From assembly GCF_000020025.1 (NCBI RefSeq), contig NC_010631.1:322565-354564 (forward strand): a stretch of DNA of 32,000 nt, given 5' to 3'. Shown here in pieces: positions 2,688-18,681 of this stretch. Position numbers and translations under genes: made by a program. The number at the start of each line of letters is the position of its first letter. Within the stretch, counting starts at the first letter, position 1. The stretch comes from Nostoc punctiforme PCC 73102 (GTDB taxonomy: Bacteria; Cyanobacteriota; Cyanobacteriia; Cyanobacteriales; Nostocaceae). Below the pieces are notes generated by a model. The model saw only the letters and a program-made list of their open reading frames with translations. It was not told where the DNA came from and ran no database searches.

Positions 2688-3740
2688 TCACGGGCATCCG
2701 GGCATTATCATAAATTCTTGTAGTTCTGCGATGGCTATGCCCGCCGCAGGCATCGCAGAATTTAGAGATTTTTCATTTTGGGCGACGGACGCGGCGAAAC
2801 TTTCACCCTCATGATCCGCTTTCATTTCTACACCCGAAACTGAATTTTCAGTCATCAACTCAGCAGAGGGGCAACTCGGTTCTATTTTCTGATCTGCGAT
2901 CGCTGGAGTTGAAGAAAATTCATTTTCGGCAACGGGCGCGGCGGAATCAGTGCCTTCATGAGGGAATATCGCTTCAACGCCAGAGACTTGGTTCTCTGCC
3001 AACAGCGAAGCAGATTCACCCTGTACAGCTTCCACAAGCGCCAGCGATGTACAGTCATTCGCCGTAGGCGAGTCTTCCTCATTCTCTGACACGCCCTCGA
3101 CAGTCTGAGGCGAAGCGCCCCCCAAGGGCGCGTGAGCCGTCTTCTCAACTTGCAAAATCTCATTTAGCGTGTCAGAGACACAGCTAACGAACTCTTCAAA
3201 AGAGTTCGTTAGCTGTTCCTGAATAGTTCGTGAGGGTTTTTGAAACCCTTGCTCTGACTGGTCTTTAGCTAAAATAGACGCTTTATACAAAGCACGTATT
3301 TCTTCAGAGCCAGCATCTATCTCTGAATCCCCAGCATTTGGTTCTTGTTTTAGAGAATCTGGTTCTTGCTTTTCAGCATTAGCTTTCTCCCAAAATTCCT
3401 TCATCCGGCTACCATGCAAATTCTTCACCATCCAGCTAGCCGTTTCTCGGCCATCCTCTATGGACTTGTCGGGCTTGAAGATGAATAGCCCACTGTCGGA
3501 GAGAATTTTCTTCGCAGAGATAAAAGTAATGTAACCCATCGGAGTAGAAAGGGGCATCCACCGAGAACCATAAGGGTCAGCCGTCCAGCATTCCTGCCAT
3601 AGCTGATTAACTGATGGTTTTTGCTGCGATGCCCAGAGCATATCTTCGATGGGGATAATCACATGAAGTCTTTTATATGGGGATTCCTTTTTACTAGCAG
3701 CAGCCTTTTTCGGTTTGGGACGAGTAATAGTTGCAGTCAT
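2688..3740 (-). CDS. Hypothetical protein; paralog of 17482-18681 with a conserved N-terminal ~120 aa and an acidic repeat-containing tail
   Basis: MTATITRPKPKKAAASKKESPYK(R/K)LHVIIPI... is near-identical to the 399-aa copy. There is an AGGAGA RBS 7 nt before the ATG. The C-terminus diverges and is shorter than in the 399-aa copy. Confidence 0.7.
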   Translation of the reverse strand: MTATITRPKPKKAAASKKESPYKRLHVIIPIEDMLWASQQKPSVNQLWQECWTADPYGSRWMPLSTPMGYITFISAKKILSDSGLFIFKPDKSIEDGRETASWMVKNLHGSRMKEFWEKANAEKQEPDSLKQEPNAGDSEIDAGSEEIRALYKASILAKDQSEQGFQKPSRTIQEQLTNSFEEFVSCVSDTLNEILQVEKTAHAPLGGASPQTVEGVSENEEDSPTANDCTSLALVEAVQGESASLLAENQVSGVEAIFPHEGTDSAAPVAENEFSSTPAIADQKIEPSCPSAELMTENSVSGVEMKADHEGESFAASVAQNEKSLNSAMPAAGIAIAELQEFMIMPGCP

Positions 3741-3862
3741 TGTACAATCTCCTGTTTATGTTGACGCACGGAATTTTCCCTACAGCGTTGTTTACCGCCT
3801 TCGGCATCGCAGGGTTTAGTTCGATATTTGTTCGTCTAAAAAGTTACCGATACACTGGAAAC

Positions 3863-4975
3863 CTATTGAGCTTGCCAGAATCGCAATTCATCTCGAAAGT
3901 ACCTCTCAGTCTTCTTTGAGCGCTCTTTCCAACAATCCCAGGCAACCAGGAACTCTTCGCCTAAATCCTCTACAACTTCACCCCTCTCGACATACAAAGT
4001 GCGGTATGGATCAGCGTGGGCAACGATAGAACCAAGCCCGATTGTGTCCGGTTGAGAGGATGTGTTCTGGAGAGCAGTAATTAAATCAGTCTCTTGGGTT
4101 GTTAATTCCGCCCAGTAGTCCTGTTTGATTACCTCATACTCTTGCGCTACTGCCCAAAACTCTTGCCACATACACCCCGGTTTAACTAGCACTGCCCTAA
4201 TGTCGCTAACTGCCTGGGGTAGCATTTCCAGTTGTTCGGCTCGGTAAGCAATCGCTTCAGGAGTCGGACTACTGCCCAGAATTATCGCTGCGGCTTCGAG
4301 CGCTTGAGTGCTGTTCATGGCACTGGCAAGGTTTTTCAGTGCCATACCCATCAAGCGCAGACATTCTTGGGCGTTCTCTTTGGGTGGTTCAGCAGCTAGC
4401 GATCGCAGATCAATGGTTTTCTCTAGGGCAAGTTTGACCTGCTTGTTCAAAGCTTTAGTCGCTTGCTGGGTCATGGTATTTCCCCATTGTTGTGAAGGAT
4501 GTTGCTTTACAGCGTTTTCCAAATCTTGAATACGCTGTCTAAGCTGTTGGTTCTCAGTCTCCAACTGCCGTAATGATTCCATCTCATCCAATCGCTGCTG
4601 CAATTGAACGTTTTGCTCCCTTTGCTGCTTGTACAGGTTTTGCAAGGATGAGATTTGCTCTTGTACCTGGGCTTCGGCTTTAGCTCCTGCTTCTGCCTGT
4701 AGCCCAACTCTCAATTCCTGGGAAAGTCGCTCTAGTTCCTGTTTATGGCGTTCTTCAATAGCAGCGATCGCTTCGGTATATTCTGGTGAATATTTACGCT
4801 CTCTGGTAAAGGGAACGCTGGGTGCATCTAAATCAGCATTGTTGATCAACAACCTCTCGCCATCAACAAAAGTGACAATCTGCTGCTAGCGATTTGGCGC
4901 GTCTGCTGAGATCACTCCCGACTCTCCATAACGGAAATGTGAAAGGGAAGAAACAGTGACTAATCAGCAAATTAA
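3863..4975 (-). pseudogene. 5'-truncated, nonsense-interrupted paralog of the 524-aa coiled-coil protein at 18787-20361
   Basis: The 329-aa ORF (3863-4852) aligns to the C-terminal ~330 aa of the 524-aa protein. Upstream the frame reads ...RYGESGVISADAPNR*QQIVTFVDGERLLINN versus RYGESGVIEADAPNHWQQIVTFADGERLLINN, because TAG at 4886-4888 replaces TGG at 19810-19812. The first ~155 codons are absent. Confidence 0.75.
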
Positions 4976-5092
4976 TTCATTCAAGCGAAAAATTGTTTTT
5001 AAACACTCAAATCGAGACGGAATAGGGCAAAAAGCGAGTATTTTGTAAATAAGCTTAAATTTGCTTAAACAAACTCTATCGTAAATTTACTG

Positions 5093-5111
5093 AGACTGCT
5101 ATAGTCAGTCT
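5093..5111. promoter_or_regulatory. Imperfect palindrome upstream of the RHH gene (candidate operator)
   Basis: agactgcta / tagtcagtct is a near inverted repeat with one bulge, ~55 nt upstream of the ATG at 5165. Confidence 0.2.
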
Positions 5112-5164
5112 GGAATCCTGTCTTATATATTTGTAGCTTTATATAGGTACTATCTAGATTAACC

Positions 5165-5326
5165 ATGATGCAGATTAGTATCACAGACGACCTGAAGAAA
5201 CGCTTTCATGCTGCTTGTGCTTTGCGTGGGCTGAAGATGAGTCATGTCGTAGTGGAGATGATTGAGCAGTGGCTGAAAACTAATGAGGTACAATCATCTT
5301 CTCAAGTTTCAAGTGTAAAGCATTAA
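5165..5326 (+). CDS. Ribbon-helix-helix (CopG/Arc/ParG-like) small DNA-binding protein, 53 aa; not in the ORF track
   Basis: My translation is MMQISITDDLKKRFHAACALRGLKMSHVVVEMIEQWLKTNEVQSSSQVSSVKH*. It shows a beta-strand (ISITDDL) followed by two helices, which is the typical RHH pattern. Stop TAA at 5324-5326. Confidence 0.6.
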   Translation: MMQISITDDLKKRFHAACALRGLKMSHVVVEMIEQWLKTNEVQSSSQVSSVKH

Positions 5327-5476
5327 ATCAAAAGGTAGCAGAGCTTGAAGTGAGGATGGCAACGATAGAAGCATTGATAAAAGTCAGCTAATTCGAGACT
5401 AGTTGAGAAATCTTATGTCAGCATAAATCCCCACACCGAAACCTCAAAAAGAATTTTTTATTGAAAATTTGGCAAT

Positions 5477-5812
5477 ATGAAAATTGAAATCCAAGGAAAA
5501 GATGCGGTAAAAGCTACAGAGGAACTGTTAGCGATTGAGGGAATAGAGGGAAGCTATCAGACAATTGATGAAGTAGAACGGGAAGGAACAGTAGCCACAA
5601 TTGCAACCATAATTGGGATTGTCAGTGGCACATTTGCGATCGCAGAGAGTCTCCACAAGTGGAAGGAAAAATACCAAAAATCGCTATACGACCCAACAGG
5701 TGCAAGGATTGAGAAAGTTTTGATTGTCACACCTGATAATCATCGGCTGCTGCTCAAAGACGCAACAGTAGAGCAAATCCAAGCGATTTTGGAAAAATCT
5801 AAGAAAAAATGA
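5477..5812 (+). CDS. Small single-pass membrane protein (111 aa), translationally coupled to the CHAT-STAND gene
   Basis: A central hydrophobic helix TVATIATIIGIVSGTFAIA is flanked by charged soluble segments. The stop overlaps the downstream start (ATGA at 5809-5812). Confidence 0.7.
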   Translation: MKIEIQGKDAVKATEELLAIEGIEGSYQTIDEVEREGTVATIATIIGIVSGTFAIAESLHKWKEKYQKSLYDPTGARIEKVLIVTPDNHRLLLKDATVEQIQAILEKSKKK

Positions 5813-8706
5813 AAATTCTCCACATCAGCTTGAAAGAGCAAGGCAAGGATTACGTTTCTCTGCGTTATTTTTGGGATAATCCTTCAGATTATAAAGAACA
5901 TAAACTGTCTGTAGCTGAAATCAAGCAGTTGGGTGATAGAGCAGAAACCGACTACTATACCCGCTTACCTGTAGATTATTCTGTTACTGGGCAAGCACTG
6001 TACAATTGGCTAGACAAAAGCGATCGCCTCTTAGCTAATGCCCTCAATCACCCCCATCAACAAGGATTAGTAATAGCGATCGCCACAGACAAGGGACTAG
6101 CTCATCTGCCTTGGGAACTGCTGCATGATGGCAAGTGCTTTTTGGTAGAGAAAACGCCTCCGATTATTCCGGTGCGTTGGATGTCCAATGGTCAACCAAT
6201 AGTTACGGCTGATAATCCTCAAAATCGCCCTCTCAATGTGCTATTTATGGCGACCTCGCCCTTGGGGGTTGAACCGGAATTGGATTATGAAGCAGAGGAA
6301 GGGAAGATTTTGTCGGCAACCAAGCGCACTCCCGTTAATCTGAGAGTAGAAGAAAGTGGCTGTTTAAATGAATTGAGTTATGTGGTTCGGGAATATGAGG
6401 CAGGATATTTTGATGTTTTTCATTTAACAGGCCACGCTACTGTTAATGATAAAACGCCCTGCTTTCTGACTGAAGATGAATATGGCAATCGAGTTGATAG
6501 CAGTACGGACGCGATCGCAAAAGCCATGATGTTTCGTTTACCTGCGTTAGTCTTCCTATCTGGTTGCCGTACAGGTTATTCGTCAGAGGGTGCAGTTCCT
6601 TCGATGGCAGAAAAACTACTCAGCATGGGCGCAACTGCTGTTATTGGTTGGGGTGAGCGAGTCAAAGATACTGATGCGACTGCTGCTGCTGGTCAATTGT
6701 ATTGGGAGTTATCACAAGGAGGAACGCTAACACAAGCGATGGCTTCTACTTATCAAAAATCAATTGAGCAAAAAGTACCAGATTGGCATAAATTACGGCT
6801 GTATGCAGCAAATACTTTACCAGGAACGTTAGTAACTTCATTAAGAACTCCGAGACGCAAGCAACTACCTAAACCGTCTAATGAAGTGGAGTTCAGAGAT
6901 GATGAAAAACGCTTAAGGGTGACAACAAGAGAGAACTTTGTTGGTCGTCGCCGTCAATTACAAAACTGTTTGCGGACTCTAAAAACAGATTTTGACAAAG
7001 TAGGGATCTTAATTCACGGTATGGGAGGATGGGGAAAGAGTAGTATTGCCTCTCGACTATGGGATAGGTTGCCTGAACATGAAAAGATTCTTTGGTGGCA
7101 ACAAATTGATGAATCTTATTTAATTAAAAAACTAAAAGATAAATTAATTAATCCAAAGCAACTAGAATTAATACCTGATCTAGAAAATAGCAAAATCCCA
7201 CTTAAATCTCGATTAATTTACTTGTTTACTCAATTAGCAGAAACAGGAGAAAAATCATTTCTCTTAATTCTGGATGATTTTGAATGGAATCTTGAACCCC
7301 GTGAAGGGCAATATGTTCTTAAAGCTGAAGTAGCCCCGATTCTAGAAGCTTTAGTACAAGCAATCCAATCAACAGGAACTAATAATAGAATTATTATTAC
7401 CTGTCGTTATGATTTTGATTCTGACCTATTAGATTTTTTATATAAACAAGGTCTAGAACCATTTAAAAAAGCTGAGTTAACTAAAAAAGTTAGTCGCTTA
7501 GAAAATTTTAGCTCTGGCAAAATACCTGATAATTTACGGGAACGAGCGTTAAATTTAGCAGATGGTAATCCTCGGTTATTGGAATTCCTCAATGATGAAT
7601 TAAGCAATATAGATGTAGAAACGAGATTAACAAAACTAGAACAAAGTCCTGAATTATGGAAAGCTCAAATTATTTGGGAGGAGCTATATCGGCTAATTGA
7701 TGAGTTACTACAAAAGATTCTTAGCTATTGCTTAGTTTATGATATTCCTGTTCCAATGGTAGTTTTAGAAGCGGCTTGTGATCAGCTTCCTAATTATCAA
7801 CAGCAATTACAAACGGGGCTAAAACTGGGACTGATAGAAGTCAGCCCCGAACCAGACGAATCCAAACGGCTTTATCGAGTTTCACGTATTATTACCCACA
7901 TCATCCCCACTATCCGCCTCCCTGAAGCACCAAAAGTTTATTCTCTCTACCAGAAAGCTCATGAAAGATTACATCAATTGTGGGGGAATAAAGAAAACGA
8001 AAGCCAAGAAAAATGGCAAGAGATTTTTCGATTGAAGTTCGCTAACAAAGAAAATCCTGAACGATTCAGGCAAGGCTTTGATGAGATGTTGGCAGTTCAA
8101 TGTAATTTAGAAGCCGATAAAGCTTTTGAATCCGAATTGAGGAAAGTTGCCGATGACTTGGTAAAGGATGGACTATGTACTCAGTTGGAAAATTATCTTC
8201 AGCAGAAACAATGGCAAAAGGCAGATGAAGAAACTGCTTGGATTTTTTACCAAGTCATGGTTAAAGAAAACTACGAAGATTGGGAGGAACTGCTGAAGGA
8301 TTTCCCCTGTGAAACTCTCCGGGAAATCAATAGGCTCTGGCTTATTAGCAGTAACAATAGATTTGGCATCAGCATCCAAGCGGAAATTTACCAGAGTTTA
8401 GGTAGTCCAAGATATGACGTAGTACAATGGGATGCGTTTGGTGAGCGTATAGGTTGGAAACAATTAGATTGGTTGAGCAATAATGAGTTAATGGAAAAGT
8501 TCGGAAAAAATGGCCAAGGAGTGGAGAATTTGCCATCGCCGCCAGGGGCACTACCCGTTAAAATTTATACTCGTATTATTCTTCCCAAATTACTGCGGGG
8601 GGGTTCGTTTGAGTTATGGAGGGCTAGGGAGTGGGGGGGGTTTAAAGTTAGTGAGAGTGAAGGATTAATATTTCTCTTCTCTCGCGCCAAGACTTGTAGA
8701 GTGTAA
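5809..8706 (+). CDS. CHAT (caspase-like) protease - STAND P-loop NTPase - C-terminal GUN4-like domain protein
   Basis: CHAT dyad: FHLTGHA (His209, nt 6433-6435) and LSGCRTG (Cys253, nt 6565-6567). Walker A GMGGWGKS (nt 7018-7041); Walker B LLILDD (nt 7261-7278); IIITCRY follows. GUN4-like C-terminus (aa ~790-965): QQKQWQKADEETAWIFYQ...FPCETLREINRLWLISSNNRFGISIQAEIYQSLG...GERIGWK...PPGALP...LFSRAKTC. Confidence 0.85.
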   Translation: MKILHISLKEQGKDYVSLRYFWDNPSDYKEHKLSVAEIKQLGDRAETDYYTRLPVDYSVTGQALYNWLDKSDRLLANALNHPHQQGLVIAIATDKGLAHLPWELLHDGKCFLVEKTPPIIPVRWMSNGQPIVTADNPQNRPLNVLFMATSPLGVEPELDYEAEEGKILSATKRTPVNLRVEESGCLNELSYVVREYEAGYFDVFHLTGHATVNDKTPCFLTEDEYGNRVDSSTDAIAKAMMFRLPALVFLSGCRTGYSSEGAVPSMAEKLLSMGATAVIGWGERVKDTDATAAAGQLYWELSQGGTLTQAMASTYQKSIEQKVPDWHKLRLYAANTLPGTLVTSLRTPRRKQLPKPSNEVEFRDDEKRLRVTTRENFVGRRRQLQNCLRTLKTDFDKVGILIHGMGGWGKSSIASRLWDRLPEHEKILWWQQIDESYLIKKLKDKLINPKQLELIPDLENSKIPLKSRLIYLFTQLAETGEKSFLLILDDFEWNLEPREGQYVLKAEVAPILEALVQAIQSTGTNNRIIITCRYDFDSDLLDFLYKQGLEPFKKAELTKKVSRLENFSSGKIPDNLRERALNLADGNPRLLEFLNDELSNIDVETRLTKLEQSPELWKAQIIWEELYRLIDELLQKILSYCLVYDIPVPMVVLEAACDQLPNYQQQLQTGLKLGLIEVSPEPDESKRLYRVSRIITHIIPTIRLPEAPKVYSLYQKAHERLHQLWGNKENESQEKWQEIFRLKFANKENPERFRQGFDEMLAVQCNLEADKAFESELRKVADDLVKDGLCTQLENYLQQKQWQKADEETAWIFYQVMVKENYEDWEELLKDFPCETLREINRLWLISSNNRFGISIQAEIYQSLGSPRYDVVQWDAFGERIGWKQLDWLSNNELMEKFGKNGQGVENLPSPPGALPVKIYTRIILPKLLRGGSFELWRAREWGGFKVSESEGLIFLFSRAKTCRV

Positions 8707-8767: not shown

Positions 8768-9165
8768 TTACGCGAAACCGATACCTGGCACTGGTGGCTG
8801 ATAACAATTTTCCTGAATAAATTTTGCTGCTACCTCATGCACCTCAGTACTCTCGGTTACTTGCTGCTTGTCCCAAGGTAAACTCATCTGTCCTGGTGAT
8901 GACTTCTTTGCTTTCGCACCCTTCACTACTGATGGCAAAAAGCTTCTCCCCCAGTGATTTCGCAACTCTTGTTTTGCCTGTGGCCGATATTTTGACAAAA
9001 CCACCGATACTTCGCCGCACATGCATAATTAATTTGGGGCAGGTCTTCTGGTTGTTGAGGCTCAAGTAGGTGGTAAGTATGATTGCTTATGATACACAGA
9101 GCGTAAAGTTTAAATCCATATTTCTGTTGTGCTTTTTTGATGTCATAAAGCAGGACTTCATGCAA
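8768..9165 (-). pseudogene. Degenerate REP-associated tyrosine transposase (RAYT / IS200-like Y1 transposase) relic
   Basis: Three overlapping minus-strand ORFs in different frames carry successive family motifs: KYGFKLYALCIISNHTYHLLEPQQPEDLP, then ...RNHWGRSFLPSVV.... The N-terminal part is missing, so the gene is frameshifted and truncated. Confidence 0.5.
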
Positions 9166-9278
9166 TACTGTTCAGTTAAGGGAAAATAGGTGGTGGAGTC
9201 AAGGAGAATTAGTTCGCGTGTTGTTTACGAGAACAAAATTAACTAAAGAGTCTTCAACTCCCTTGTCATCCGTTAAGA

Positions 9279-12200
9279 TTATTGGGATAGGTTCCAGCGA
9301 GATTTGCAATAGTTTTCAATCTCTTCGTCTGTTGTCAGTTTGCTAGTTAAATTTCCACTCCGCACGAATAAACAGCGTTGATTTTTCTTACCTTTAGTTT
9401 TGACTTCGATGGATACTGGACGTGGGGAAGGCTTTACGATGATGCGACATACATCTCTGCGCTCGACTTCATGGAAGGTGATGTCGATTAATGTTGCTAA
9501 ATCTTTTCCTAGTTGCGGTAGTAATAAATCATTGATGAGAAATAGCTGATATGCATCCCGTTTATTTGGTTTGCTGAAGGTTTGATAATCTAAGTCAAGT
9601 CCGATGATTTCTTTGTCGTCGGTGACTCCTATTAGTAATGTTCCACCTTTTTCGGTATTGAGGAAAGATGCGACTGTTTTGAGAATTACTTGCTCCATTT
9701 CAGGATTTTTTTGGTTTTTATCCACATCCCAACGAGCGGTAGATTTGAATTCTAATGTGGAACTCTCGTCTTTAGTGGTGATGAGTTCCACAATATCTGC
9801 GTCACCTGTTAGGGGTGCAAAGTCCCGATATGCTGTTAATGCATCTTGTTTGACTTGTTCGGGAACGATGGGGAATGTGGTGAGGATGTATGCAAATTCT
9901 GCTTCAGTTAAACCGTAGAGGTGAGCTATAATTCCGTCGAGTTCTGCGCGGAGTTTAGCTCTTTCGCTTGCGTCGGTGACTCCGTTGGTATGGGAACCGA
10001 GTCCAACTTCTTGTGCTAGTTCGTCAAATTCTGGGGTGGTGCAGATAAGTTTGGCTGCGCGTTGTACAATTTCGTCGAAGTTGCGATCACTTTCCGTTAG
10101 ACGTGGAACTGGTAACTGATAAATGTAAAACATATTTATGTTTGCAGATACCTGTTGACGTAATGCAAAATCTATACAAAAACTATTCAATGTAGCGCAT
10201 ATAAATAAAGTAGATTTATTATCCCCGCTTGGGGATGCAATATTAAGAGAATTTCCAGTAAAAACATTTGAGGGTAAAACTGTTCCAATTAAAGTACGAG
10301 CATCTGTACTTCTGCCTATAGCACGGTAAGAAAATCTATAACATTGATAGTTTAATATTTGACCTGTATCGCATTCATTCTTTTTCAATAAAGCTTTTCT
10401 GCCTTCTTCTTCATTCAGCCAATACCTAGATTTACCAAATTGATGGGTAAACTGATGAATCATCTTTCCTTCATAGAGAGGTAGCATAGAATGGACATAT
10501 GTTTTATTGAAAAGAGAAGCATCATCAGTCATATTAAATTCACGATGCAATTCTAAATTCCACTTATTATCTATCTTTTCACCTAGTGAAGGAAACTTCA
10601 GCATTTTCTCAGCAATACAAACATCAACTTCGTTTTTTAATTCCATTAGCGAAAGAGAATTAGGTGATATTTTTCGTACCATATCAATGGTAATTAGCAA
10701 ACTATCATTATTTGGGAACCTTAGAAGTTCTTGCACATCATGACGCATAAAAATAGCTGGAAATTCTGTTGTTTCTGCACCCTTTGTAAAAGTAAGTACA
10801 ACAAATTTAGAACGACTATCAACTTCTTCAAAAATCATTTTCCGGTTTTCAAAGCAGAATAAACCTGTAATATTTGTTTGATTAAACAACATCTCTCGTA
10901 GTTTTTTAGCACCTAAGTCAGTATAAATACCACTAGGGATTACAATTCCACACTCACCATTTTTACGTAAAAGGTTAAAGCACTGTTCTAAAAAAAGTTT
11001 GTAAAGATTTACATCTTTACCGTGGCGTTTACCGTTAATTATAGGAACCTGATTTTTATACTGTTCAGCAAATCTAAAATACTCCCTTTGATGGTTGTAA
11101 TCACTTTGATAGTGTAACCATTCTTTCTGAATATTTGGATCTGTTAGTAAACGTTTTAGCTCAATCTCAAAATCCTTAATGTCCATCTTTTTCTTAGTCA
11201 CAGCATCACTATATTCTGAGCAAAATTCTTTAGAATTAGGTTGAAAACTTTCCCAAGGTGGATTAGTTATAATCGCATCAAAACCACCCCTTCCTAAAAC
11301 CTTATCAAAATGATAACCCCAGTGAAAAGGCTTTAATGCAGCAATATCATCAACATTTAAAACCCGTTTATTTGGTTTACCAGCTAACTGAACTTCTTCA
11401 TATTTAATCCCCAAGCGCTCGCTAAACTCTTCCAAAAGCAAAACATTTAGTTTTTCTTTTGAGTTATTATTGAGATCATCAATAGATGCACGCAGTAATA
11501 GAAGTTTTTTATTTTGATGTGTTTCCTTATCTAGCTTATCAAATTCCTTTTTTTCAGGGATAAAAGCATATTTTTTATACAATTCAATTGATTTATTTTT
11601 CTCTTCTAAAATTGACTGATATGTATAATAAGAACTAGATTGAAATAAACTTAATTGTAAATCGGGATTTTCTTGTTTATATCCCCGTGCTTTAGCTTTA
11701 GCTGTGAGTTTAACTTGATCGAATACATTTGCATCGACCGTTATCAATCCAATTAGCGAATTACCAGCCATAATATTAAAATCAATATTAGGTAATGGTT
11801 CTAATTGATTTACATTATGAGCAGAAGATACCAAAGCTAGAAATAAGCGAAGTTTAGCAATTTCTGTCGCTTCCTCCATGATGTCAACACCATAAAGATT
11901 ATCAGTAACAATCCGTTTTTTTAAGTAGTAAGATATAGACTGATGTTTATTTCGTATATCTTGAAGTTGTTGCTTTAAACTTGCATCTCCTATTACGTCA
12001 ATCATCCCAATTACTGCACCATAAACTAGGATAAGTGTTTTCATTACAGCAACAAGAAAAGCACCCGAACCGCAAGCAGGGTCAAGAATTGATAATTTTG
12101 GCAGAATATCATTAATTAATAAACGGCAGATATTTGCATCTAGTTTAAATATCAGTTGGTTATAATCTTCAAAAGGTTTATATTTATTAGATAAAGAATC

Positions 12201-13304
12201 ATTAACGCGGTCTAAAATAAGTTTATGAATCGTCCTATCACAAAGATATTCGGTGATTTGCGGACGAGTATAATAAGCACCAAACACTTTTTGATTAATA
12301 TACTTTTCAAAAATGTACCCTAAAACATCGGGCGATATTTCGTCATCTTTCCCTTCTGGCGTATCATCTAAGTTCCAAGAATATTTGGCAAATAATTCTA
12401 AAATTTTTTCAAATGCTATATCAGAAATTGAAATATTATTTTCTTGTTCAATGCGATGTTGAAGGAATAATCCACCATTGAGGTATTTAATCACTCCGAC
12501 CAACTTTTTCACTGATGGGTCACGGTCTTCTTCTGGTGTAGCAAAACTGTCAAAAAATAAAACTTTCAGAAAACTACTATAAAAAAGATTATCACCTTTA
12601 TCTTTACTTTGTTTGAGCCGATTTTGTAAATAATTTAAATCTCCATTATCCAGGAAACTCTTACGCTGGAGAAAATAAACGAACATCATTCTATTGAAAA
12701 TTACCGATGCATACCAACGTTTATCAACATCATTGTTGATTCCTTTTATATGCTGTAAAAACTGCTTATGTTCCTCTTGAAATTCTTTATAAAATTTCTT
12801 CGTTACAGGTTCTACATCAAACGCATCTTGAAGACGGCGTGCAATTTCTACAACCGAAAGATTATCATCTTCAAGTTCAGTAATATCAATAACTAAAGAA
12901 CCGAGCTTACTTAAAAATAAATCTCCCGGTTGTCCCTTGACATACAAAGGCTCACGGATGTAACTTTTATTTTCTTCACGCTTCACCCAATACCAGAGAC
13001 TTCGAGTACGCTGACCATCAATAAATATCAACAGATTTTCAGCAATTAAATTGGTAACTTCTTTGTGAATTGCAGCCCGACTTTTTGCATCAGGAATAGT
13101 ACCATCTGCTGCTGTAACTTCAAAAATAGCTACACCAGAACTCTCAGCTATTCGCTGGTATTGGTAAAACTCAGTCTCCTCTTCAAGTTGCAAGGTTACA
13201 GCTTTTTTCTGCGAAGAATCTGACCAACCCAATTCTTGAATGAACAAGTCCTGAAATTGAAATTTATGTAATAATTCGCGTGTTCGTTGGAAATTTAGCG
13301 TCAT
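9279..13304 (-). CDS. Large gamma-class N6-adenine DNA methyltransferase (type IIG/PglX-like architecture) with C-terminal AlbA_2/Schlafen-like domain
   Basis: AYYTRPQITEYL. Motif I ILDPACGSGAFLV (aa 406-418). YGVDIMEEATEIAKLRLFL, NIMAGNSLIG. Motif IV DAIITNPPWESF (aa 676-687). C-terminal helix motif IIAHLYGLTEAEFAYIL. The last ~163 aa (nt ~9282-9770) read STLEFKSTARWD...LKTVASFLNTEKGGTLLIGVTDDKEIIGL...VCRIIVKPSPRPVSI, which is the AlbA_2 pattern. Confidence 0.85.
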   Translation of the reverse strand: MTLNFQRTRELLHKFQFQDLFIQELGWSDSSQKKAVTLQLEEETEFYQYQRIAESSGVAIFEVTAADGTIPDAKSRAAIHKEVTNLIAENLLIFIDGQRTRSLWYWVKREENKSYIREPLYVKGQPGDLFLSKLGSLVIDITELEDDNLSVVEIARRLQDAFDVEPVTKKFYKEFQEEHKQFLQHIKGINNDVDKRWYASVIFNRMMFVYFLQRKSFLDNGDLNYLQNRLKQSKDKGDNLFYSSFLKVLFFDSFATPEEDRDPSVKKLVGVIKYLNGGLFLQHRIEQENNISISDIAFEKILELFAKYSWNLDDTPEGKDDEISPDVLGYIFEKYINQKVFGAYYTRPQITEYLCDRTIHKLILDRVNDSLSNKYKPFEDYNQLIFKLDANICRLLINDILPKLSILDPACGSGAFLVAVMKTLILVYGAVIGMIDVIGDASLKQQLQDIRNKHQSISYYLKKRIVTDNLYGVDIMEEATEIAKLRLFLALVSSAHNVNQLEPLPNIDFNIMAGNSLIGLITVDANVFDQVKLTAKAKARGYKQENPDLQLSLFQSSSYYTYQSILEEKNKSIELYKKYAFIPEKKEFDKLDKETHQNKKLLLLRASIDDLNNNSKEKLNVLLLEEFSERLGIKYEEVQLAGKPNKRVLNVDDIAALKPFHWGYHFDKVLGRGGFDAIITNPPWESFQPNSKEFCSEYSDAVTKKKMDIKDFEIELKRLLTDPNIQKEWLHYQSDYNHQREYFRFAEQYKNQVPIINGKRHGKDVNLYKLFLEQCFNLLRKNGECGIVIPSGIYTDLGAKKLREMLFNQTNITGLFCFENRKMIFEEVDSRSKFVVLTFTKGAETTEFPAIFMRHDVQELLRFPNNDSLLITIDMVRKISPNSLSLMELKNEVDVCIAEKMLKFPSLGEKIDNKWNLELHREFNMTDDASLFNKTYVHSMLPLYEGKMIHQFTHQFGKSRYWLNEEEGRKALLKKNECDTGQILNYQCYRFSYRAIGRSTDARTLIGTVLPSNVFTGNSLNIASPSGDNKSTLFICATLNSFCIDFALRQQVSANINMFYIYQLPVPRLTESDRNFDEIVQRAAKLICTTPEFDELAQEVGLGSHTNGVTDASERAKLRAELDGIIAHLYGLTEAEFAYILTTFPIVPEQVKQDALTAYRDFAPLTGDADIVELITTKDESSTLEFKSTARWDVDKNQKNPEMEQVILKTVASFLNTEKGGTLLIGVTDDKEIIGLDLDYQTFSKPNKRDAYQLFLINDLLLPQLGKDLATLIDITFHEVERRDVCRIIVKPSPRPVSIEVKTKGKKNQRCLFVRSGNLTSKLTTDEEIENYCKSRWNLSQ

Positions 13305-13910: not shown

Positions 13911-16900
13911 TTATTTCTCAAACAATCCTAAAGAACAAATGATTTGAGGTTCCCGTTTCTCAATTTCTTCGCTGACAATACACAAGCGATCATCCATCCG
14001 CAAAGCAACTACTAATTCTGCTAATTGCTGACTACTAATACCACTTCTTAATTGCCGATTTAAAGTATCGAGCGCAGACTGCCTTAATGGGTAACGATAA
14101 ATCTCATCAATCGCTTTTAATAGTTCCTCATTTACAAATAAAGTACCCTTCATCTCCTGTGCATAACTTTTCAATCGTTCGTAACTACGGAATCTCGCAC
14201 CCGATGGTCTACCCAATTGACCACCCATATTTTTTTCTTCCTCAGCCAGTAATTCCGCACCTTTTTTAACTAAATTGTGATGCTGTTTATCTTTAGCTAT
14301 TGCTAGTGTATATTCATCACAAGATGCCATTTTTAACACAGCTATTTGAGATTGGGTAACACTATTGCCATTGCGATCAACATAAATTAAAGAATCATTC
14401 CCTTCAGTGGTTTTCATATACATTAATACTCCCTCTGGTTGCACTATTCGAGGTATATGTTCACGAGTAGAATAAACCACATTGGGCATCTCTTCAATGG
14501 TTTTTTTAAGCCCAGGATTATTATCAGTTGCTTTTTTCCAAATTTGAAATGCTTCCGATGTTAAGTCAACTTCTGCATCTTCATCTCCATCTAAAATACC
14601 CGATTTTTCATTATATAAATCCCAAATTACTTGTGCATCATCATCCTCAAAAAATGCCTCATCAGTTCCCACAACCTCGGCATTTTCTTGTAATCTTTGC
14701 TTGAGTCTTCCCCGCAAATTAATAATCCGTTCCACACCTTCAGCAGGAAGAAAAGAATAACAGAGAATTTCTTGAGCATTTTGTCCAATTCGATCAACCC
14801 GTCCAGCCCTTTGAATTAATCGAATAATTGCCCAAGGTAAATCCCAATTGACGATAATTGCACAATCTTGTAAATTATGACCTTCACTTAAAATATCTGT
14901 GGCGATTAATATACGTAATTCATCTGTTGACAATACCCTATGTCGCTGATTATTACTCACAGGACTAAATTTTCCCGTCAGTTCCGTAGGATATTGTGAT
15001 TGCCCCGTTACTCCTGCTACTTTTGTAATATTTTTTGCCTGTAAGTTATCTGTTATGTAGCGTACCGAATCTGCAAATTGTGTAAAAATTAAAACCTTTT
15101 CATTAGGATGAGTTTTTGTTAGTAGATTTATTAGGGCTATCAATTTTTCATCTGCTTGAGAATTCCATTTACCAATATTTTGTAATATATTAATTAGTGC
15201 TTTTGCATCGGCTAATAAATCTTTTTTTAGTTTTTTAATATCAAATAATGACGAACGCAACCACTTAAAACGACGTTGATATCGGGTAGTATATTCCTGA
15301 TAAATTGACTCTGCTCGTTGTCTAAAAACTTTTTCTGCTGACCCCATCCCTGCTGGGGGGGTGAAAATTTCTTCTCCGACTTTTCCTCCCTTCTCTGCTT
15401 GTGGAGAATGGGGTAAGGAGGTGAGGTCATCTTCTTCTATTTCTATATCAAATAAACTTGCTATAACAGAATCAGCATCCTCATCATTATTCCTCGTATC
15501 TAATAATTCTGCATCTTGAGTACCAATAGGGATATCAAGCTCGTTTTCTAAAGCATATAAATAAATAAAATTCCGTAAAATGTGACGTTCAATTGATTGA
15601 ATAAAAGCAGAACCACTACTTTCTAAGCGTTTAAATAAATTAGTGCGAGAAAAACCCATCAACCTTCGTCCCCCGCGAAATAAGCCACTAATTTGGCGCT
15701 GTTCTGCATCTGTTGGTGGCTGTTTAGATTTTGCAAGTACATAATTACCCAATCCATAACGGGGTAAATTTAATTGATTAATTACTTGAATTACTGCTTC
15801 TGAATAAAGACTAGAATAGGAGTCATTAGAACTATCTAAAGTGAATTTAATAGTGCGTGGTAAACGATCAGGAAAATAAGAACGTCTACCATCGGTAAAC
15901 TCTAAGTATTTACGTGTCACTTTTTGTTTATCCTGACTCAGGGAAGAAGAATTTGGGTCTGATTTGGCATAATTATCTTTAATAAACGAACGAGTCCGCC
16001 GCACCATATAGCGTTTCATCAATTCTCGCCAATCGTCGGAATGTTCGCTTTTTTCAAAAGCAGCAAGAGACTTAACAGAACATTGATACTTTCTAATAAA
16101 TTGCAATTCGCCTAACGAACCGCCACCCAATTCATTGATTAAAGTTTCTGGTCTAAAACCTAAATCTTGGTCTTCAGGAACAAATAATCTTAATTGAGAA
16201 GAAAGGTCAAGATAAGTTTTATTATATGGTGTTGCCGAAAGTAAAATACATTTGCTTTCATTGGCTGTAATATATTCAGCGATTGCCCGATATCTTTTAC
16301 CTTCTCGATTGCGTAAATTATGACTTTCATCTATTAATACAACCCGATAACGACGTAATTCTGGTAATAAATTTTGGACTTTACTAATGGGCATCACCTT
16401 AGCATAAAGCCGATAAGTATCCACATATTCTTGCCACATCGAAGTTAAGTTTTTTGGACAAATAATTAAGGTTTCCAAAAAACAATCTTCTTGTAATATT
16501 TTTGCTAAAGCTGTTCCAACTAATGTTTTACCAAGCCCCACAACATCGCCGACAATTACCCCACCACGGCGAGTTACATGACGCGCTGCTAGCTGTACGG
16601 CGGCTTTTTGGAAATCAAACAAATTATTAAATTCACGGGGAATTCGGAATTCGGAAATTCCGGCGATTGCTTCATGGGATAAATGATAAGCAATCTTCAA
16701 GTAAATATGATACGGGGGAATTAATTCTTCCCTTGCCCAACTATTATCAATTATTTCTGCAAGCTCTTTAGAAATATCGATACAGCCGTAATCTTTCCAA
16801 CGGTCTTCAAACCACTTTTGCAGTTTATTCGTTGCATCATGGTCTAAAATATCAACATTTAATTCCCCTTGTTTTCTCAAACCCGCCAAAGTCAAATTAC

Positions 16901-17381
16901 TACTACCTAAAAATCCAACTATCGGACTATTGGGGTCGTTACGATGAACCAGGTATAACTTAGCATGGAGGGGATGCGCTAAAAATAATTTAATAACTAA
17001 TTTCTTTGTTTTTAATTGACGGCTTAAACGACGTAACCCCATTTCATGATCATCTGTTGGCGCACCGATGGTAAGCTGTTGGCGAAACTCCGCCGCTATC
17101 TTTTTTTTGAGACGAATAATAGTGCTATTATCAAGCCTGCCCTCCCCAGTACCCAACGTAAATGCTGTATGCACTTCATCGCTGGGTAAACCCTGCATCC
17201 CTACCAACAACCGACAACAAGAAGTTTCTCCACCCACATACTGTTCGATTAAATCATCAAGCTTGCGCCAACCTCTGAGGTTAAAGTAACCTACGCAAAA
17301 GTCAGCCCGGTAAGATACTTTAAGGGTATCCCGCAAAATTGGTAGCAGTTGCAAGTCGATGTTGTCAAATATGCGTGGCAT
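13911..17381 (-). CDS. PLD-family (single HKD) nuclease domain fused to an SNF2-type SF2 helicase/translocase
   Basis: N-terminal ADFCVGYFNLRGW and HKD motif HAKLYLVHRNDPNSPIVGFLGSSNLT (aa 139-164). Helicase motif I GDVVGLGKTLVG; motif II VVLIDESHNLRN; motif III ILLSATPYNK; motif V ATDILSEGHNLQD; motif VI QRAGRVDRIGQ. Confidence 0.85.
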   Translation of the reverse strand: MPRIFDNIDLQLLPILRDTLKVSYRADFCVGYFNLRGWRKLDDLIEQYVGGETSCCRLLVGMQGLPSDEVHTAFTLGTGEGRLDNSTIIRLKKKIAAEFRQQLTIGAPTDDHEMGLRRLSRQLKTKKLVIKLFLAHPLHAKLYLVHRNDPNSPIVGFLGSSNLTLAGLRKQGELNVDILDHDATNKLQKWFEDRWKDYGCIDISKELAEIIDNSWAREELIPPYHIYLKIAYHLSHEAIAGISEFRIPREFNNLFDFQKAAVQLAARHVTRRGGVIVGDVVGLGKTLVGTALAKILQEDCFLETLIICPKNLTSMWQEYVDTYRLYAKVMPISKVQNLLPELRRYRVVLIDESHNLRNREGKRYRAIAEYITANESKCILLSATPYNKTYLDLSSQLRLFVPEDQDLGFRPETLINELGGGSLGELQFIRKYQCSVKSLAAFEKSEHSDDWRELMKRYMVRRTRSFIKDNYAKSDPNSSSLSQDKQKVTRKYLEFTDGRRSYFPDRLPRTIKFTLDSSNDSYSSLYSEAVIQVINQLNLPRYGLGNYVLAKSKQPPTDAEQRQISGLFRGGRRLMGFSRTNLFKRLESSGSAFIQSIERHILRNFIYLYALENELDIPIGTQDAELLDTRNNDEDADSVIASLFDIEIEEDDLTSLPHSPQAEKGGKVGEEIFTPPAGMGSAEKVFRQRAESIYQEYTTRYQRRFKWLRSSLFDIKKLKKDLLADAKALINILQNIGKWNSQADEKLIALINLLTKTHPNEKVLIFTQFADSVRYITDNLQAKNITKVAGVTGQSQYPTELTGKFSPVSNNQRHRVLSTDELRILIATDILSEGHNLQDCAIIVNWDLPWAIIRLIQRAGRVDRIGQNAQEILCYSFLPAEGVERIINLRGRLKQRLQENAEVVGTDEAFFEDDDAQVIWDLYNEKSGILDGDEDAEVDLTSEAFQIWKKATDNNPGLKKTIEEMPNVVYSTREHIPRIVQPEGVLMYMKTTEGNDSLIYVDRNGNSVTQSQIAVLKMASCDEYTLAIAKDKQHHNLVKKGAELLAEEEKNMGGQLGRPSGARFRSYERLKSYAQEMKGTLFVNEELLKAIDEIYRYPLRQSALDTLNRQLRSGISSQQLAELVVALRMDDRLCIVSEEIEKREPQIICSLGLFEK

Positions 17382-17481: not shown

Positions 17482-18681
17482 CTACTCATTCCACTTCACC
17501 AACGCCCCATCAACAATAGCAATCCCCCACTGCGGAAACCTCGCCAGCAACTTCTTGATCACAATCTGCAAAGCCGGATCATCACTCCAGCACTCTTGCA
17601 AATACTCAAACCCCGGATTCTGCCCCGAATTCGCTGCAACCTTGAGTTTCTGCATCCGCTCCGGTCGCGCATTTGCCCTTGCAACAATCGCCTCATGCGA
17701 CCACTTTTCAGCATTTGGCACGGGGGCGGCGGAACTTTCACCCTCATCAACTGTTTTGACTTCTCCACCTGAAACTGAATTTTCAACTAACAACAAAGTG
17801 GGATTACCCTGTTCTACAAGCTCTGGTGTTTGATTAACGATCGCTTCCTTGGAAGAAAATTCATTTTGAGCGACGGGCGCGGCGGAACCAGTACCTTCAT
17901 CACAGTCCCTCGGCTCAACGCCACAATCCTGGTTTTCAGGCAACAGCGAAGTGGGATTACTTTGTGCAGCATCCACAAGCGCTAGCGATGTACAGTCATT
18001 CGCCGTAGGCGAGTCTTTCTCATTCTCTGACACGCTTTGAACAAACTGAGGCGACGCGCCCCCCAAGGGCGCATGAGCCGTCTCTTCAACTTGCAAAATC
18101 TCATTTAGCGTGTTAGAGACACAGCTAACGAACTCTTTTGAAGAGTTCGTTAGCTGTTCCTGAGCAGTTTGTGAGGTTTCCTGAAACCCTTGCTCTGACT
18201 GATTTTGACCTGAAATAGATGCTTTATACGAAGCACCTATCTCTTCACAGCCAGCATCTATCTCTGAAATCTCAGCATTTGGTTCTTGTTTTTCAGCATC
18301 TGGTTTTGGTGACGCAGAATTAGCTTTTTCCCAAAATTCCTTCATCCGACTGCCATGCAAATTTTTCACCATCCAGCTAGCCGTTTCTCGGCCGTCTTGA
18401 ATTGACTTGTCGGGTTTGAAAATGAATAGCCCACTGTCAGCTAGAATTTTCTTCGCAGAGATAAAAGTACTGTATCCTAAAGCTGAGGTCAAAGACATCC
18501 ACCGAGAACCATAAGGATCAGCCGTCCAGCATTCCTGCCACAATTGTGTAACTGATGGTTTTTGCTGCGATGCCCACAGCATATCTTGTATGGGAATAAT
18601 CACATGAAGTTTTTTATACGGGGATTCCTTCTTGCTAGCAGCAGCCTTTTTGGGTTTGGGACGAGTAATAGTTGCAGTCAT
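17482..18681 (-). CDS. Hypothetical protein (399 aa), full-length paralog of 2688-3740
   Basis: Same N-terminal domain and AGGAGA RBS as the left copy. It has two ~34-aa internal repeats (ENQDCGVEPRDCDEGTGSAAPVAQNEFSSKEAIV / ENSVSGGEVKTVDEGESSAAPVPNAEKWSHEAIV). A ~60-aa C-terminal segment is absent from the left copy. Confidence 0.75.
   Translation of the reverse strand: MTATITRPKPKKAAASKKESPYKKLHVIIPIQDMLWASQQKPSVTQLWQECWTADPYGSRWMSLTSALGYSTFISAKKILADSGLFIFKPDKSIQDGRETASWMVKNLHGSRMKEFWEKANSASPKPDAEKQEPNAEISEIDAGCEEIGASYKASISGQNQSEQGFQETSQTAQEQLTNSSKEFVSCVSNTLNEILQVEETAHAPLGGASPQFVQSVSENEKDSPTANDCTSLALVDAAQSNPTSLLPENQDCGVEPRDCDEGTGSAAPVAQNEFSSKEAIVNQTPELVEQGNPTLLLVENSVSGGEVKTVDEGESSAAPVPNAEKWSHEAIVARANARPERMQKLKVAANSGQNPGFEYLQECWSDDPALQIVIKKLLARFPQWGIAIVDGALVKWNE

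Follow-up and report, generated by a model that had tools for sequence, protein, structure and literature searches.

What a cyanobacterium might gain from a protease that is joined both to a molecular switch and to a domain resembling the tetrapyrrole-binding protein GUN4 is the question raised by a plasmid locus of Nostoc punctiforme PCC 73102. The locus lies in a stretch of 32,000 nucleotides (nt), hereafter the window (NCBI RefSeq assembly GCF_000020025.1, contig NC_010631.1, positions 322,565 to 354,564 of the forward strand), and comprises three same-strand genes, which encode a ribbon-helix-helix (RHH) protein, a 111-residue protein with a hydrophobic segment, and a 965-residue protein in which a CHAT protease domain, a STAND NTPase core and a GUN4-like domain follow one another (Table 1). 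All three genes were found where an initial annotation, made from the DNA letters, had placed them, as was the ATGA at 5809-5812 in which the stop codon of the 111-residue reading frame overlaps the ATG of the 965-residue frame. That annotation had proposed a tetrapyrrole-sensing, caspase-like death switch. Here, the two coupled genes are interpreted as what is probably a cell-death module of the EACC1 type, gated by a protease and controlled by a STAND switch, that would act through abortive infection, and as a cyanobacterial variant of such two-gene modules. This reading is favoured because of the architecture, the conservation of catalytic residues, the obligate linkage, the pattern of one constant and one variable component, and the defence-island context, while tetrapyrrole sensing itself appears doubtful.

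The gene pair and its conservation

The His/Cys dyad that had been recognised in the motifs FHLTGHA and LSGCRTG of the 965-residue protein is present within a match to Pfam CHAT (PF12770) at residues 60-324 (E 6e-19, 69 bits; cut-off 24), and H209 and C253 are invariant in 32 orthologues, as is to be expected of a member of this family. The STAND motifs GMGGWGKS and LLILDD were likewise borne out. AAA_16 matches residues 376-494 (E 3e-10, 41.1 bits; cut-off 32.6), NB-ARC matches the NTPase region below threshold, and G404-S411 and D489/D490 are almost invariant in the same orthologues, which agrees with a STAND NTPase. Residues 495-755, which match nothing in Pfam or the PDB, are 53-78% identical among GUN4-type orthologues. 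None of the curated PADLOC models, including those of the Avs systems, matches across the protein, and a weak BovA match was obtained. Membership in PD-T4-6 was rejected, since the match (7e-21) is local and pairs the GUN4-like region with the C-terminal part of the profile; that the same model also labels generic Ser/Thr kinases is a further reason against membership. At the extreme C-terminus (residues 951-965; 8659-8703), past a hypervariable stretch, many orthologues carry a tail resembling LLSR[AR]xxC[KR][VL], which might inhibit the protein in cis, mark a site of self-cleavage or serve in docking.

The neighbourhoods of small-gene homologues were surveyed in 42 loci, with one genome per species. 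A large downstream open reading frame (ORF) on the same strand was called in 36 of these loci, with no partner ORF callable in the other six. Most of the 36 pairs are spaced by -4 to +12 nt, while seven have wider gaps of 96-312 nt. The directly 3' gene is of the CHAT-STAND type: among the 32 partners that could be aligned, to which all domain counts refer, CHAT is present in every one, AAA_16 in 31, nSTAND_NTPase5 in 13 and nSTAND1 in eight. The pair was found again in approximately 40 independent genomes and is therefore far beyond chance. Two actinobacterial relatives show a comparable arrangement, with the small gene followed after 18 nt by a gene for a 1839-residue CHAT-AAA_16-TPR protein in a member of the Streptosporangiaceae (P0246), and after 2 nt by a gene for a 1490-residue AAA_16-TPR protein in Luedemannella (P0221). 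The linkage spans phyla, with about 40 cyanobacterial and two actinobacterial loci.

The two members of the pair differ in how fast they change. Conservation is usually higher in the small protein than in any part of the large one (at the locus of Nostoc sp. MG11, L003, 95% compared with 57% for CHAT), and the C-terminal 210 residues are the least conserved part of the partner. This C-terminus is GUN4-like in 21 of the 32 aligned partners and composed of TPR units in four; in divergent loci, the partner is a CHAT-nSTAND1-TPR protein, or its C-terminus is short or truncated. The suggestion of the initial annotation that the small gene may encode an 'effector-associated constant component' fits these observations, with a small protein that is steadier than its partner and lies 5' of a CHAT-STAND gene of varying C-terminus. 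The composition is that of an EACC1-caspase two-gene system, with a 3' gene for an N-terminal caspase-superfamily peptidase with an intact dyad and with a constant small and a variable large component.

Homologues of the 111-residue protein fall into 262 clusters at 90% identity, are 65-100% identical to it, about 107-111 residues long and nearly all cyanobacterial; an exhaustive profile search returned 197 clusters at 50% identity, actinobacterial proteins among them. Mean column identity is 75% in a 36-sequence alignment. The single hydrophobic segment that had been noted earlier was located at residues 38-56 (Kyte-Doolittle mean 1.92). Its small-residue patch (G47, S/G/A50, G51), a defining trait of EACC1 proteins, is kept in close and distant members, and W62, shortly past the segment, is conserved throughout the family, as are G47 and G51. 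An AlphaFold2 model of the monomer, computed with the family alignment (predicted local distance difference test score, pLDDT, 75; predicted template modelling score, pTM, 0.69), consists of a beta1-alpha1-beta2 unit, a loop, the hydrophobic segment folded back, and a C-terminal beta-beta-alpha unit. A Foldseek search of the PDB with this model gave nothing significant, with a weak, generic resemblance to ferredoxin-like, ACT and PII folds. The protein is indeed too small for a gasdermin, as had been argued (111 residues versus about 240-300), and no gasdermin family of Pfam matches it. In Tolypothrix sp. PCC 7910, two EACC-like paralogues (P0009 and P0024; HCG51_18535 and HCG51_18575) lie approximately eight genes apart on one chromosome, which suggests clustered or tandem copies of the system in some genomes.

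Comparison with EACC1 systems and a proposed mechanism

Kaur et al. (2020) describe EACC1 as the product of a small 5' gene, with one conserved helix that carries a central small-residue patch and with short alpha+beta extensions, and the 3' gene as encoding an N-terminal caspase-superfamily peptidase followed by one of about 50 alternative C-terminal domains, STAND NTPases included. In Ktedonobacter racemifer, KrEACC1 is cut by the KrAvs12 protease, at a site predicted to be Asp49 just before the hydrophobic segment; its C-terminal fragment alone is toxic, and the cleaved protein permeabilises liposomes (Evans et al. 2025, bioRxiv 10.1101/2025.11.14.688446). The structural and contextual features of EACC1 were all found for the 111-residue protein, including a size of about 100-120 residues and a helix with alpha+beta flanks. 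It is nearly as long as KrEACC1 (111 versus 114 residues), and both have a central Gly/Ser-rich hydrophobic segment (Kyte-Doolittle mean 1.71 at KrEACC1 residues 53-71) followed by a conserved Trp, with alpha+beta flanks and a predicted cleavage loop directly before the segment. Both are encoded immediately 5' of a clan-CD protease-STAND NTPase with a C-terminal sensor. The systems differ in that the window protease is a CHAT protein whereas that of KrAvs12 is a C14 caspase-like enzyme, in the likely P1 residue (Arg/Lys35 versus Asp49), in the sensor (GUN4-like versus the tail-connector sensor of Avs12) and in the RHH gene that lies upstream in Nostocales, and sequence similarity between them is marginal.

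The experimentally validated KrEACC1 itself barely passes the model of Pfam family PF19953 (28.2 bits; cut-off 23.6). The same family is the top Pfam family in distant relatives of the window protein, in 13 of 67 and with a best E of 0.0016, all scores (11-17 bits) being below the cut-off; the window protein itself does not match it even at E<=1. Alignment of the family profile to KrEACC1 or its eight close relatives with hhalign stays in register from the N-terminal helix through the hydrophobic segment to the Trp, with E values of 0.0013-0.0034 (0.0013 for KrEACC1 alone), and with a hidden Markov model (HMM) of the Ktedonobacter clade, true members of the family outrank reversed decoys (best E 1e-4). 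Since a search for homologues of KrEACC1 returned only these eight close relatives, the EACC1 profile is shallow, and it is for this reason that the profile-profile results are weak. A search with an alignment of bridging members, aimed at Pfam-annotated EACC1 proteins, gave nine relatives, all of them unannotated. The 111-residue protein is accordingly called EACC1-like, its sequence similarity being marginal; it stands for a divergent branch in cyanobacteria to which current models are blind, and not for a proven member of PF19953.

The loop before the hydrophobic segment holds the most probable point of attack. An Arg or Lys at position 35 is shared by 119 of 120 close and 88 of 103 distant members, in a loop that is otherwise variable, with Glu or Asp frequent at positions 31, 32, 34 and 36, and block 31-40 has the lowest confidence in the folded part of the model (pLDDT 58). 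In the hhalign alignment, the R35 loop falls within about two residues of the predicted Asp49 site of KrEACC1. Several clan-CD proteases, such as metacaspases and separase, cut after basic residues. By analogy with KrEACC1, R35 is the likely cleavage site.

A mechanism can be proposed on this basis. In the resting state, the N-terminal beta-alpha-beta unit (residues 1-35) would pack on the C-terminal beta-beta-alpha unit and hold segment 38-56 out of the membrane. A trigger recognised by the GUN4-like core together with the hypervariable tail would release the STAND NTPase, which would oligomerise with bound nucleoside triphosphate and draw the N-terminal CHAT domains together. The active CHAT protease would then cut the 111-residue protein in its exposed loop, most likely after R35, and the freed C-terminal fragment of approximately 76 residues would oligomerise in the membrane and permeabilise it, so that the cell would die before phage replication is completed, as in abortive infection. 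In Nostocales, the small RHH protein encoded upstream probably represses the operon. The initial annotation had considered the small protein as either the substrate or the membrane effector, and a protein that is both would match the experiments on KrEACC1 and KrAvs12 (Evans et al. 2025). It is from that pair that we infer cleavage, pore formation and death at this locus.

Several results weigh against this interpretation. The 111-residue protein has no match in Pfam, NCBIfam or PADLOC, and its monomer model is moderately confident, with one good model in five. The hhalign probability to the Ktedonobacter EACC1 clade is marginal (10-18%). The reciprocal HMM search enriched real sequences at the top of its ranking, but with scores at the level of shuffled decoys. 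No similarity between the window CHAT domain and the C14-like protease of KrAvs12 was detectable, and both the specificity of the CHAT domain and its relation to the substrate are extrapolated. Finally, the system is dispensable, since homologous CHAT genes are disrupted by insertion sequences (IS) in Nostoc flagelliforme: on pNFSY08 (L043, 5781-7691) and pNFSY06 (L044, 5781-6050), the nearest relatives among plasmids, the CHAT-STAND gene is truncated by transposases, of an IS630 element and of an unclassified transposase gene, with the RHH and EACC-like genes intact. These copies are decaying or inactivated cassettes.

The interpretation as a protease-gated module may also be set against other known systems. 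In 'System 4', the EACC1-caspase system of Kaur, Burroughs, Iyer & Aravind (2020, eLife), a constant component with one helix and its patch of small residues is paired with a 3' gene of the caspase superfamily, whose very variable C-terminal part includes STAND NTPases (nSTAND1), and the system is enriched in multicellular bacteria, all as in the window family; it is described there as prevalent in actinobacteria and sporadic in proteobacteria, whereas the window family is cyanobacterial and sub-threshold to PF19953, and GUN4 is not among the C-terminal partners of EACC1 systems in the accessible part of that account. Bacterial gasdermins with caspase-like or CHAT proteases, as reported by Johnson et al. 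(2022, Science), share an adjacent protease that removes an inhibitory piece from a latent pore-former, with membrane permeabilisation and abortive infection as the outcome. The window effector is unrelated to them and would have its inhibitory piece at the N-terminus, and its protease carries a STAND sensor in the same polypeptide. The Avs and bacterial NLR-like STAND NTPases, reportedly antiviral (Gao et al. 2022; Kibby et al. 2023), have the same order of N-terminal effector, STAND core and C-terminal sensor, and versions with TPR sensors occur in the window family; in the window protein, which has no PADLOC Avs match, the effector is a protease that would act on a separate pro-toxin, and the sensor is GUN4-like. 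In Craspase, gRAMP/Cas7-11 is associated with the TPR-CHAT protein Csx29, which cleaves Csx30. There too, a CHAT protease is inactive until its sensor is triggered and has a dedicated neighbouring substrate, but activation occurs through RNA-guided target binding without a fused STAND core, and the role of the substrate is to regulate a sigma factor, not to form pores.

The GUN4-like domain and the nature of the trigger

The sensor of a STAND protein is normally its C-terminal module, as in the architectures of Apaf-1, NLR and Avs proteins. In the window protein, this position is held by a match to Pfam GUN4 (PF05419) at residues 791-886 (E 3.7e-20, 72.9 bits; cut-off 29.2). The GUN4 similarity that the initial annotation had seen is real, but it covers profile positions 9-101 of 141, that is, the N-terminal two thirds, and not the whole of the 175 C-terminal residues for which it had been claimed. 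A profile of the orthologues matches solved GUN4 structures (7E2R 5e-18, 4YKB 7e-14, 1Z3X 1e-10, 1Y6I 3e-8), and this confirms the core. The porphyrin pocket fared less well, since the LxNxLR motif and the palm residues are without a counterpart save at the position of Arg214.

Arg214 is essential for porphyrin binding by SynGUN4, to which Arg217 and the alpha7/alpha8 palm contribute (Verdecia et al. 2005, PMC1084334), Asn211 is essential for bilin binding, and LxNxLR (Leu209, Asn211, Leu213, Arg214) is kept by true GUN4 orthologues and lost by paralogues (Rockwell et al. 2023, PMC10156173). The 'GALPVKIYTR' of the window aligns with 'GHLPLxNxLR' of GUN4, with a Leu-Pro that is invariant in the family and with V-K-I-Y-T-R at the positions of LxNxLR, R922 being the equivalent of Arg214. 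Across 18 orthologues, the Asn211 position is never Asn, and a basic residue takes the place of Arg214 in 14 (R 7, K 4, H 3); Arg217 is not conserved, and no alignable counterpart of the 'greasy palm' residues of alpha7/alpha8 (Val218, Ala219, Tyr223, Trp228) was found in the orthologues. Neither the LxNxLR motif nor the palm with Arg217 that mark a functional GUN4 is therefore present. Mean pairwise identity is 0.5-0.76 in residues 756-860 and 0.07-0.28 beyond, save for the LP and the short C-terminal tail, and the region past the LP..R motif is hypervariable in both length and sequence (identity 0.07-0.22). A single-sequence structure model of the domain (pLDDT 39) was too low in confidence for use. 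Compared with GUN4 (Synechocystis sll0558; PDB 1Y6I, 4XKB) and its paralogues of the sll1380 type, the window domain has the helical core alpha1-alpha6, the Leu-Pro of the GHLP loop and the Arg214 equivalent, but it is without Asn211, Leu213 and Arg217 of LxNxLR(xxR) and without a recognisable alpha7/alpha8, its C-terminal part is hypervariable, and it is fused to a predicted death-switch protein, whereas GUN4 acts on Mg-chelatase. Because the Asn211 position is lost, Arg217 is not conserved and the region after the core is hypervariable, the domain is classified from its sequence as paralogue-type, with the pocket half degenerate and fast-evolving.

These observations bear on the possibility that the same cassette is triggered by a tetrapyrrole (protoporphyrin IX, Mg-protoporphyrin or a bilin) bound to the GUN4-like domain, in which case a disturbance of the pigment pool by phage or photo-oxidative stress would license death. 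The strength of the Pfam match, the profile matches to solved tetrapyrrole-binding GUN4 proteins, the invariant Leu-Pro and the retained, mostly basic Arg214 equivalent speak for it. The GUN4-like modules of plasmids, moreover, are cyanobacterial in 39 of 39 records, as would suit a cue specific to phototrophs; their fusion partners are NACHT and AAA-type NTPases, Ser/Thr kinases, ankyrin or WD40 proteins and a SAV_2336-N-related protein, in agreement with earlier reports of GUN4 fused to caspases and kinases, and tetrapyrrole sensing was proposed for such fusions by Kaur et al. (2020). The absence of Asn211 from all 18 orthologues, the unconserved Arg217 and the unalignable palm argue against it, and hypervariability of the half-pocket is unexpected in the sensor of an invariant metabolite. 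In divergent loci, furthermore, TPR arrays take the place of the domain, as in protein-sensing STANDs of the Avs type. A tetrapyrrole trigger is accordingly regarded as unlikely; the motif evidence counts against it, and it amounts to speculation, while rapid evolution and replacement by TPR arrays are no less compatible with a sensor that recognises variable proteins, such as those of phages.

Were the domain a genuine small-molecule sensor after all, for which the chances seem rather slim, a tetrapyrrole, a bilin or a chlorophyll intermediate, possibly made or freed during cyanophage infection or photo-oxidative damage, would license the STAND-CHAT protein to cut the EACC1-like pro-toxin. 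If true, a multicellular cyanobacterium would possess a pyroptosis-like death switch that is set off by a metabolite and tied to its pigment metabolism, and the widespread GUN4 'paralogue' domains would have a first assigned function.

A different division of labour follows from the model that Kaur et al. (2020) proposed for EACC1 systems from the conserved Gly-patch helix, in which the small transmembrane protein is a membrane sensor that activates the protease, and the latter processes itself to free its C-terminal, here GUN4-like, module as the effector. The 'LLSR..C' tail and the many Arg residues of the window protein could serve as sites of such auto-cleavage. The GUN4-like domain, however, has no obvious toxic activity, and it occupies what is normally the sensor position of a STAND protein. 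KrEACC1, moreover, was found experimentally to be the cleaved substrate and toxic effector and not a sensor (Evans et al. 2025), and this model is considered improbable.

Genomic setting, the RHH gene and significance

The reading as an abortive-infection module draws further on the setting of the cassette, which is carried on a Nostoc plasmid and is part of a defence island. Directly downstream on the opposite strand lies a type IIG restriction-modification (RM) enzyme (9279-13304; PADLOC REase_MTase_IIG 1.6e-115), followed by an HKD(PLD)+Snf2 helicase protein of 1156 residues (13911-17381, minus strand; PADLOC candidate 'C3a139 HKD+Snf2' 4e-48). Two copies of a minus-strand gene pair without a Pfam match (2688-4852 and 17482-20361) bracket this defence block of approximately 12.5 kb; they are about 14.9 kb apart, with protein identities of 74% and 85%. 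The left copy of the larger gene (329 residues) corresponds to the C-terminal 329 residues of the 524-residue right copy and is truncated exactly at the start of the block. The duplication could mark an insertion hotspot or recombination-mediated cassette exchange. No relatives of the small protein or the partner module were found in phage records, and neither signs of a diversity-generating retroelement nor long repeat pairs involving the hypervariable tail of the 965-residue protein were detected.

Table 1. Features of the cassette, in window coordinates
Feature	Position	Strand	Basis
15-nt direct repeat, three copies (TAAATTTGCTTAAAC-like); possible RHH operator	5046-5096	+	Repeat scan, 80-100% identity
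RHH protein, 53 residues, ParG-like	5165-5326	+	Pfam ParG
Out-of-frame 3' remnant of another (cluster-1) RHH gene	5323-5392	+	Match to L003
111-residue EACC1-like protein, predicted latent membrane toxin; constant component	5477-5812	+	Homologues, linkage, model
Acidic/basic loop, residues 30-38 IDEVEREGT, with R35; predicted cleavage site	5564-5590	+	Conservation and AlphaFold2 model
Hydrophobic segment, residues 38-56, small-residue patch G47/S50/G51, then W62	5588-5644	+	Kyte-Doolittle and conservation
965-residue CHAT-STAND-GUN4-like protein, ATGA-coupled to the 111-residue gene	5809-8706	+	Pfam and orthologues
CHAT (clan CD) domain; H209 at 6433-6435, C253 at 6565-6567	5986-6780	+	Pfam CHAT
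STAND NTPase core; Walker A GMGGWGKS 7018-7041, Walker B LLILDD 7261-7278	6934-7290	+	Pfam AAA_16
Helical middle region, residues 495-755, NTPase-to-sensor linker	7291-8073	+	Without family match
GUN4-like, paralogue-type domain; 'GALPVKIYTR' motif 8548-8574	8074-8577	+	Pfam GUN4 and PDB profile matches
Hypervariable C-terminal stretch, ending in short semi-conserved tail LFSRAKTCRV	8578-8703	+	Orthologue identity

This setting argues against a function outside defence, in which the protease would serve developmental or stress-related death or signalling in filamentous cyanobacteria, with the small protein as its anchor or regulator. CHAT- and caspase-family proteases do take part in the development of Anabaena, HetF of the CHAT family being an example (PMC9457339), the family is concentrated in filamentous multicellular taxa, and EACC1-DnaK fusions hint at links to stress (Evans et al. 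2025). The cassette, however, is plasmid-borne, patchily distributed, IS-disrupted in a close relative and flanked by restriction-type defence genes, and its sensor end evolves fast, traits that mark conflict systems and not core developmental genes; a role of this kind is judged to have only a small chance of being correct.

Upstream of the pair, the 53-residue protein was confirmed as an RHH protein by Pfam ParG (25.4 bits; cut-off 21.4), with RHH_10, RelB and ParD below threshold. Near-identical copies occur only on the two N. flagelliforme plasmids (DNA 93-96% identical), where the NCBI Prokaryotic Genome Annotation Pipeline (PGAP) labels them 'plasmid partition protein ParG'. Partition as the function was rejected, as no ParA/ParF-type match was found in the neighbouring ORFs that were scanned. 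The view of the three genes as one cassette, put forward in the initial annotation, holds in part: the window RHH protein itself has no sequence homologue in the 42 related loci (phmmer), but when the upstream ORFs were clustered, members of other RHH families emerged at this position and in this orientation in 14 of the 15 loci of the Nostocales clade (L001-L015), and the two N. flagelliforme plasmids likewise have an RHH gene there. One such family, present in 9-10 loci at 16-86 nt upstream, matches RHH_1 over its full length below threshold; a second, in five loci, matches RHH_5 above threshold.

The window retains a trace of an exchange between these families. Translated out of frame, the remnant listed in Table 1 gives the last 22 residues of a protein of the first family, LNQKVAELEVRMATIEALIKVS, where the intact gene of L003 ends ...PLNQKVAELDARMATVEALVKVS. 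The DNA at about 5320-5480 aligns closely with L003, and the DNA upstream of it is unrelated; therefore, the ParG-like RHH gene displaced the 5' part of another RHH gene in situ. RHH genes are absent from the distant cyanobacterial loci (L016-L042), and no RHH-family Pfam match was obtained among the genes called upstream in the two actinobacterial relatives. The RHH protein is read as a clade-restricted, interchangeable accessory regulator, neither a core component nor an antitoxin, and the triple 15-nt repeat could be its putative operator. A promoter-like site lies at 5102-5131, just 3' of the repeats and 5' of the RHH start codon; the promoter and terminator scan as a whole was not above chance.

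An arrangement in which the RHH and small proteins form a toxin-antitoxin-like pair, with the CHAT-STAND gene merely adjacent, can scarcely be right, since the frequency of RHH proteins among antitoxins, the weak RelB, ParD and HicB-type matches and the recurrence of an upstream RHH gene in the Nostocales clade are set against a small gene that is ATGA-coupled to the CHAT gene and 150 nt away from the RHH gene, against RHH genes that are absent from L016-L042, where CHAT-STAND is always present, and that have no Pfam-recognised counterpart upstream in the two actinobacterial relatives, and against RHH families that are interchangeable rather than coupled to and co-conserved with a toxin as in type II systems. 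Not every upstream RHH-like ORF belongs to the cassette. At L039 (5186-5825), two unrelated ORFs with the look of a toxin-antitoxin pair precede a divergent EACC-like/CHAT-STAND-TPR pair; judged by eye, one resembles a MazF/PemK toxin, and the other is RHH-like, with only weak matches to DUF6290 and PSK_trans_fac.

Some further features of the window were recorded. The RM enzyme, of 1341 residues, is an Eco57I/MmeI-type methylase on the minus strand with a Schlafen/AlbA_2 domain at its C-terminus (residues 1180-1322, E 8.5e-18), a fusion that seems unusual. The HKD+Snf2 protein has its PLD/HKD nuclease domain at the N-terminus and weaker matches to DrmD and BrxH. The interval 8768-9279 between the cassette and the RM gene is gene-poor, with several short overlapping ORFs, and the minus-strand ORF 8926-9165 ('...IISNHTYHLLEP...') looks by eye like a fragment of an IS200/RAYT-type transposase, with no Pfam match. 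At 29-2425 on the plus strand, a 798-residue RTX calcium-binding repeat protein is encoded (HemolysinCabind, E 5e-70); within its gene, at 162-1556, units of 234 nt and of about 150 nt are repeated in tandem.

Modules of EACC1 and a protease are among the most abundant protease-effector pairs of prokaryotes, and only one has been studied experimentally. The present system departs from those known in belonging to an unrecognised cyanobacterial EACC1-like branch, in having CHAT where a C14 protease would be expected, in its GUN4-like sensor and in the accessory RHH gene. This branch, with its 262 clusters, is invisible to Pfam, NCBIfam and PADLOC and is consequently missed in defence annotation; it pairs with CHAT, points to a conserved Arg/Lys cleavage site and has a GUN4-like module as its presumed STAND sensor. 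That RHH genes recur upstream and can stand in for one another suggests, in addition, a safety layer at the level of transcription, not described for EACC1 systems. Structures of GUN4 date from 2005, and across cyanobacteria GUN4-paralogue domains are found joined to kinases, NACHT NTPases, caspases or ankyrin proteins; activation of the cassette, which should kill the cell, would offer a simple life-or-death readout of what these domains recognise.

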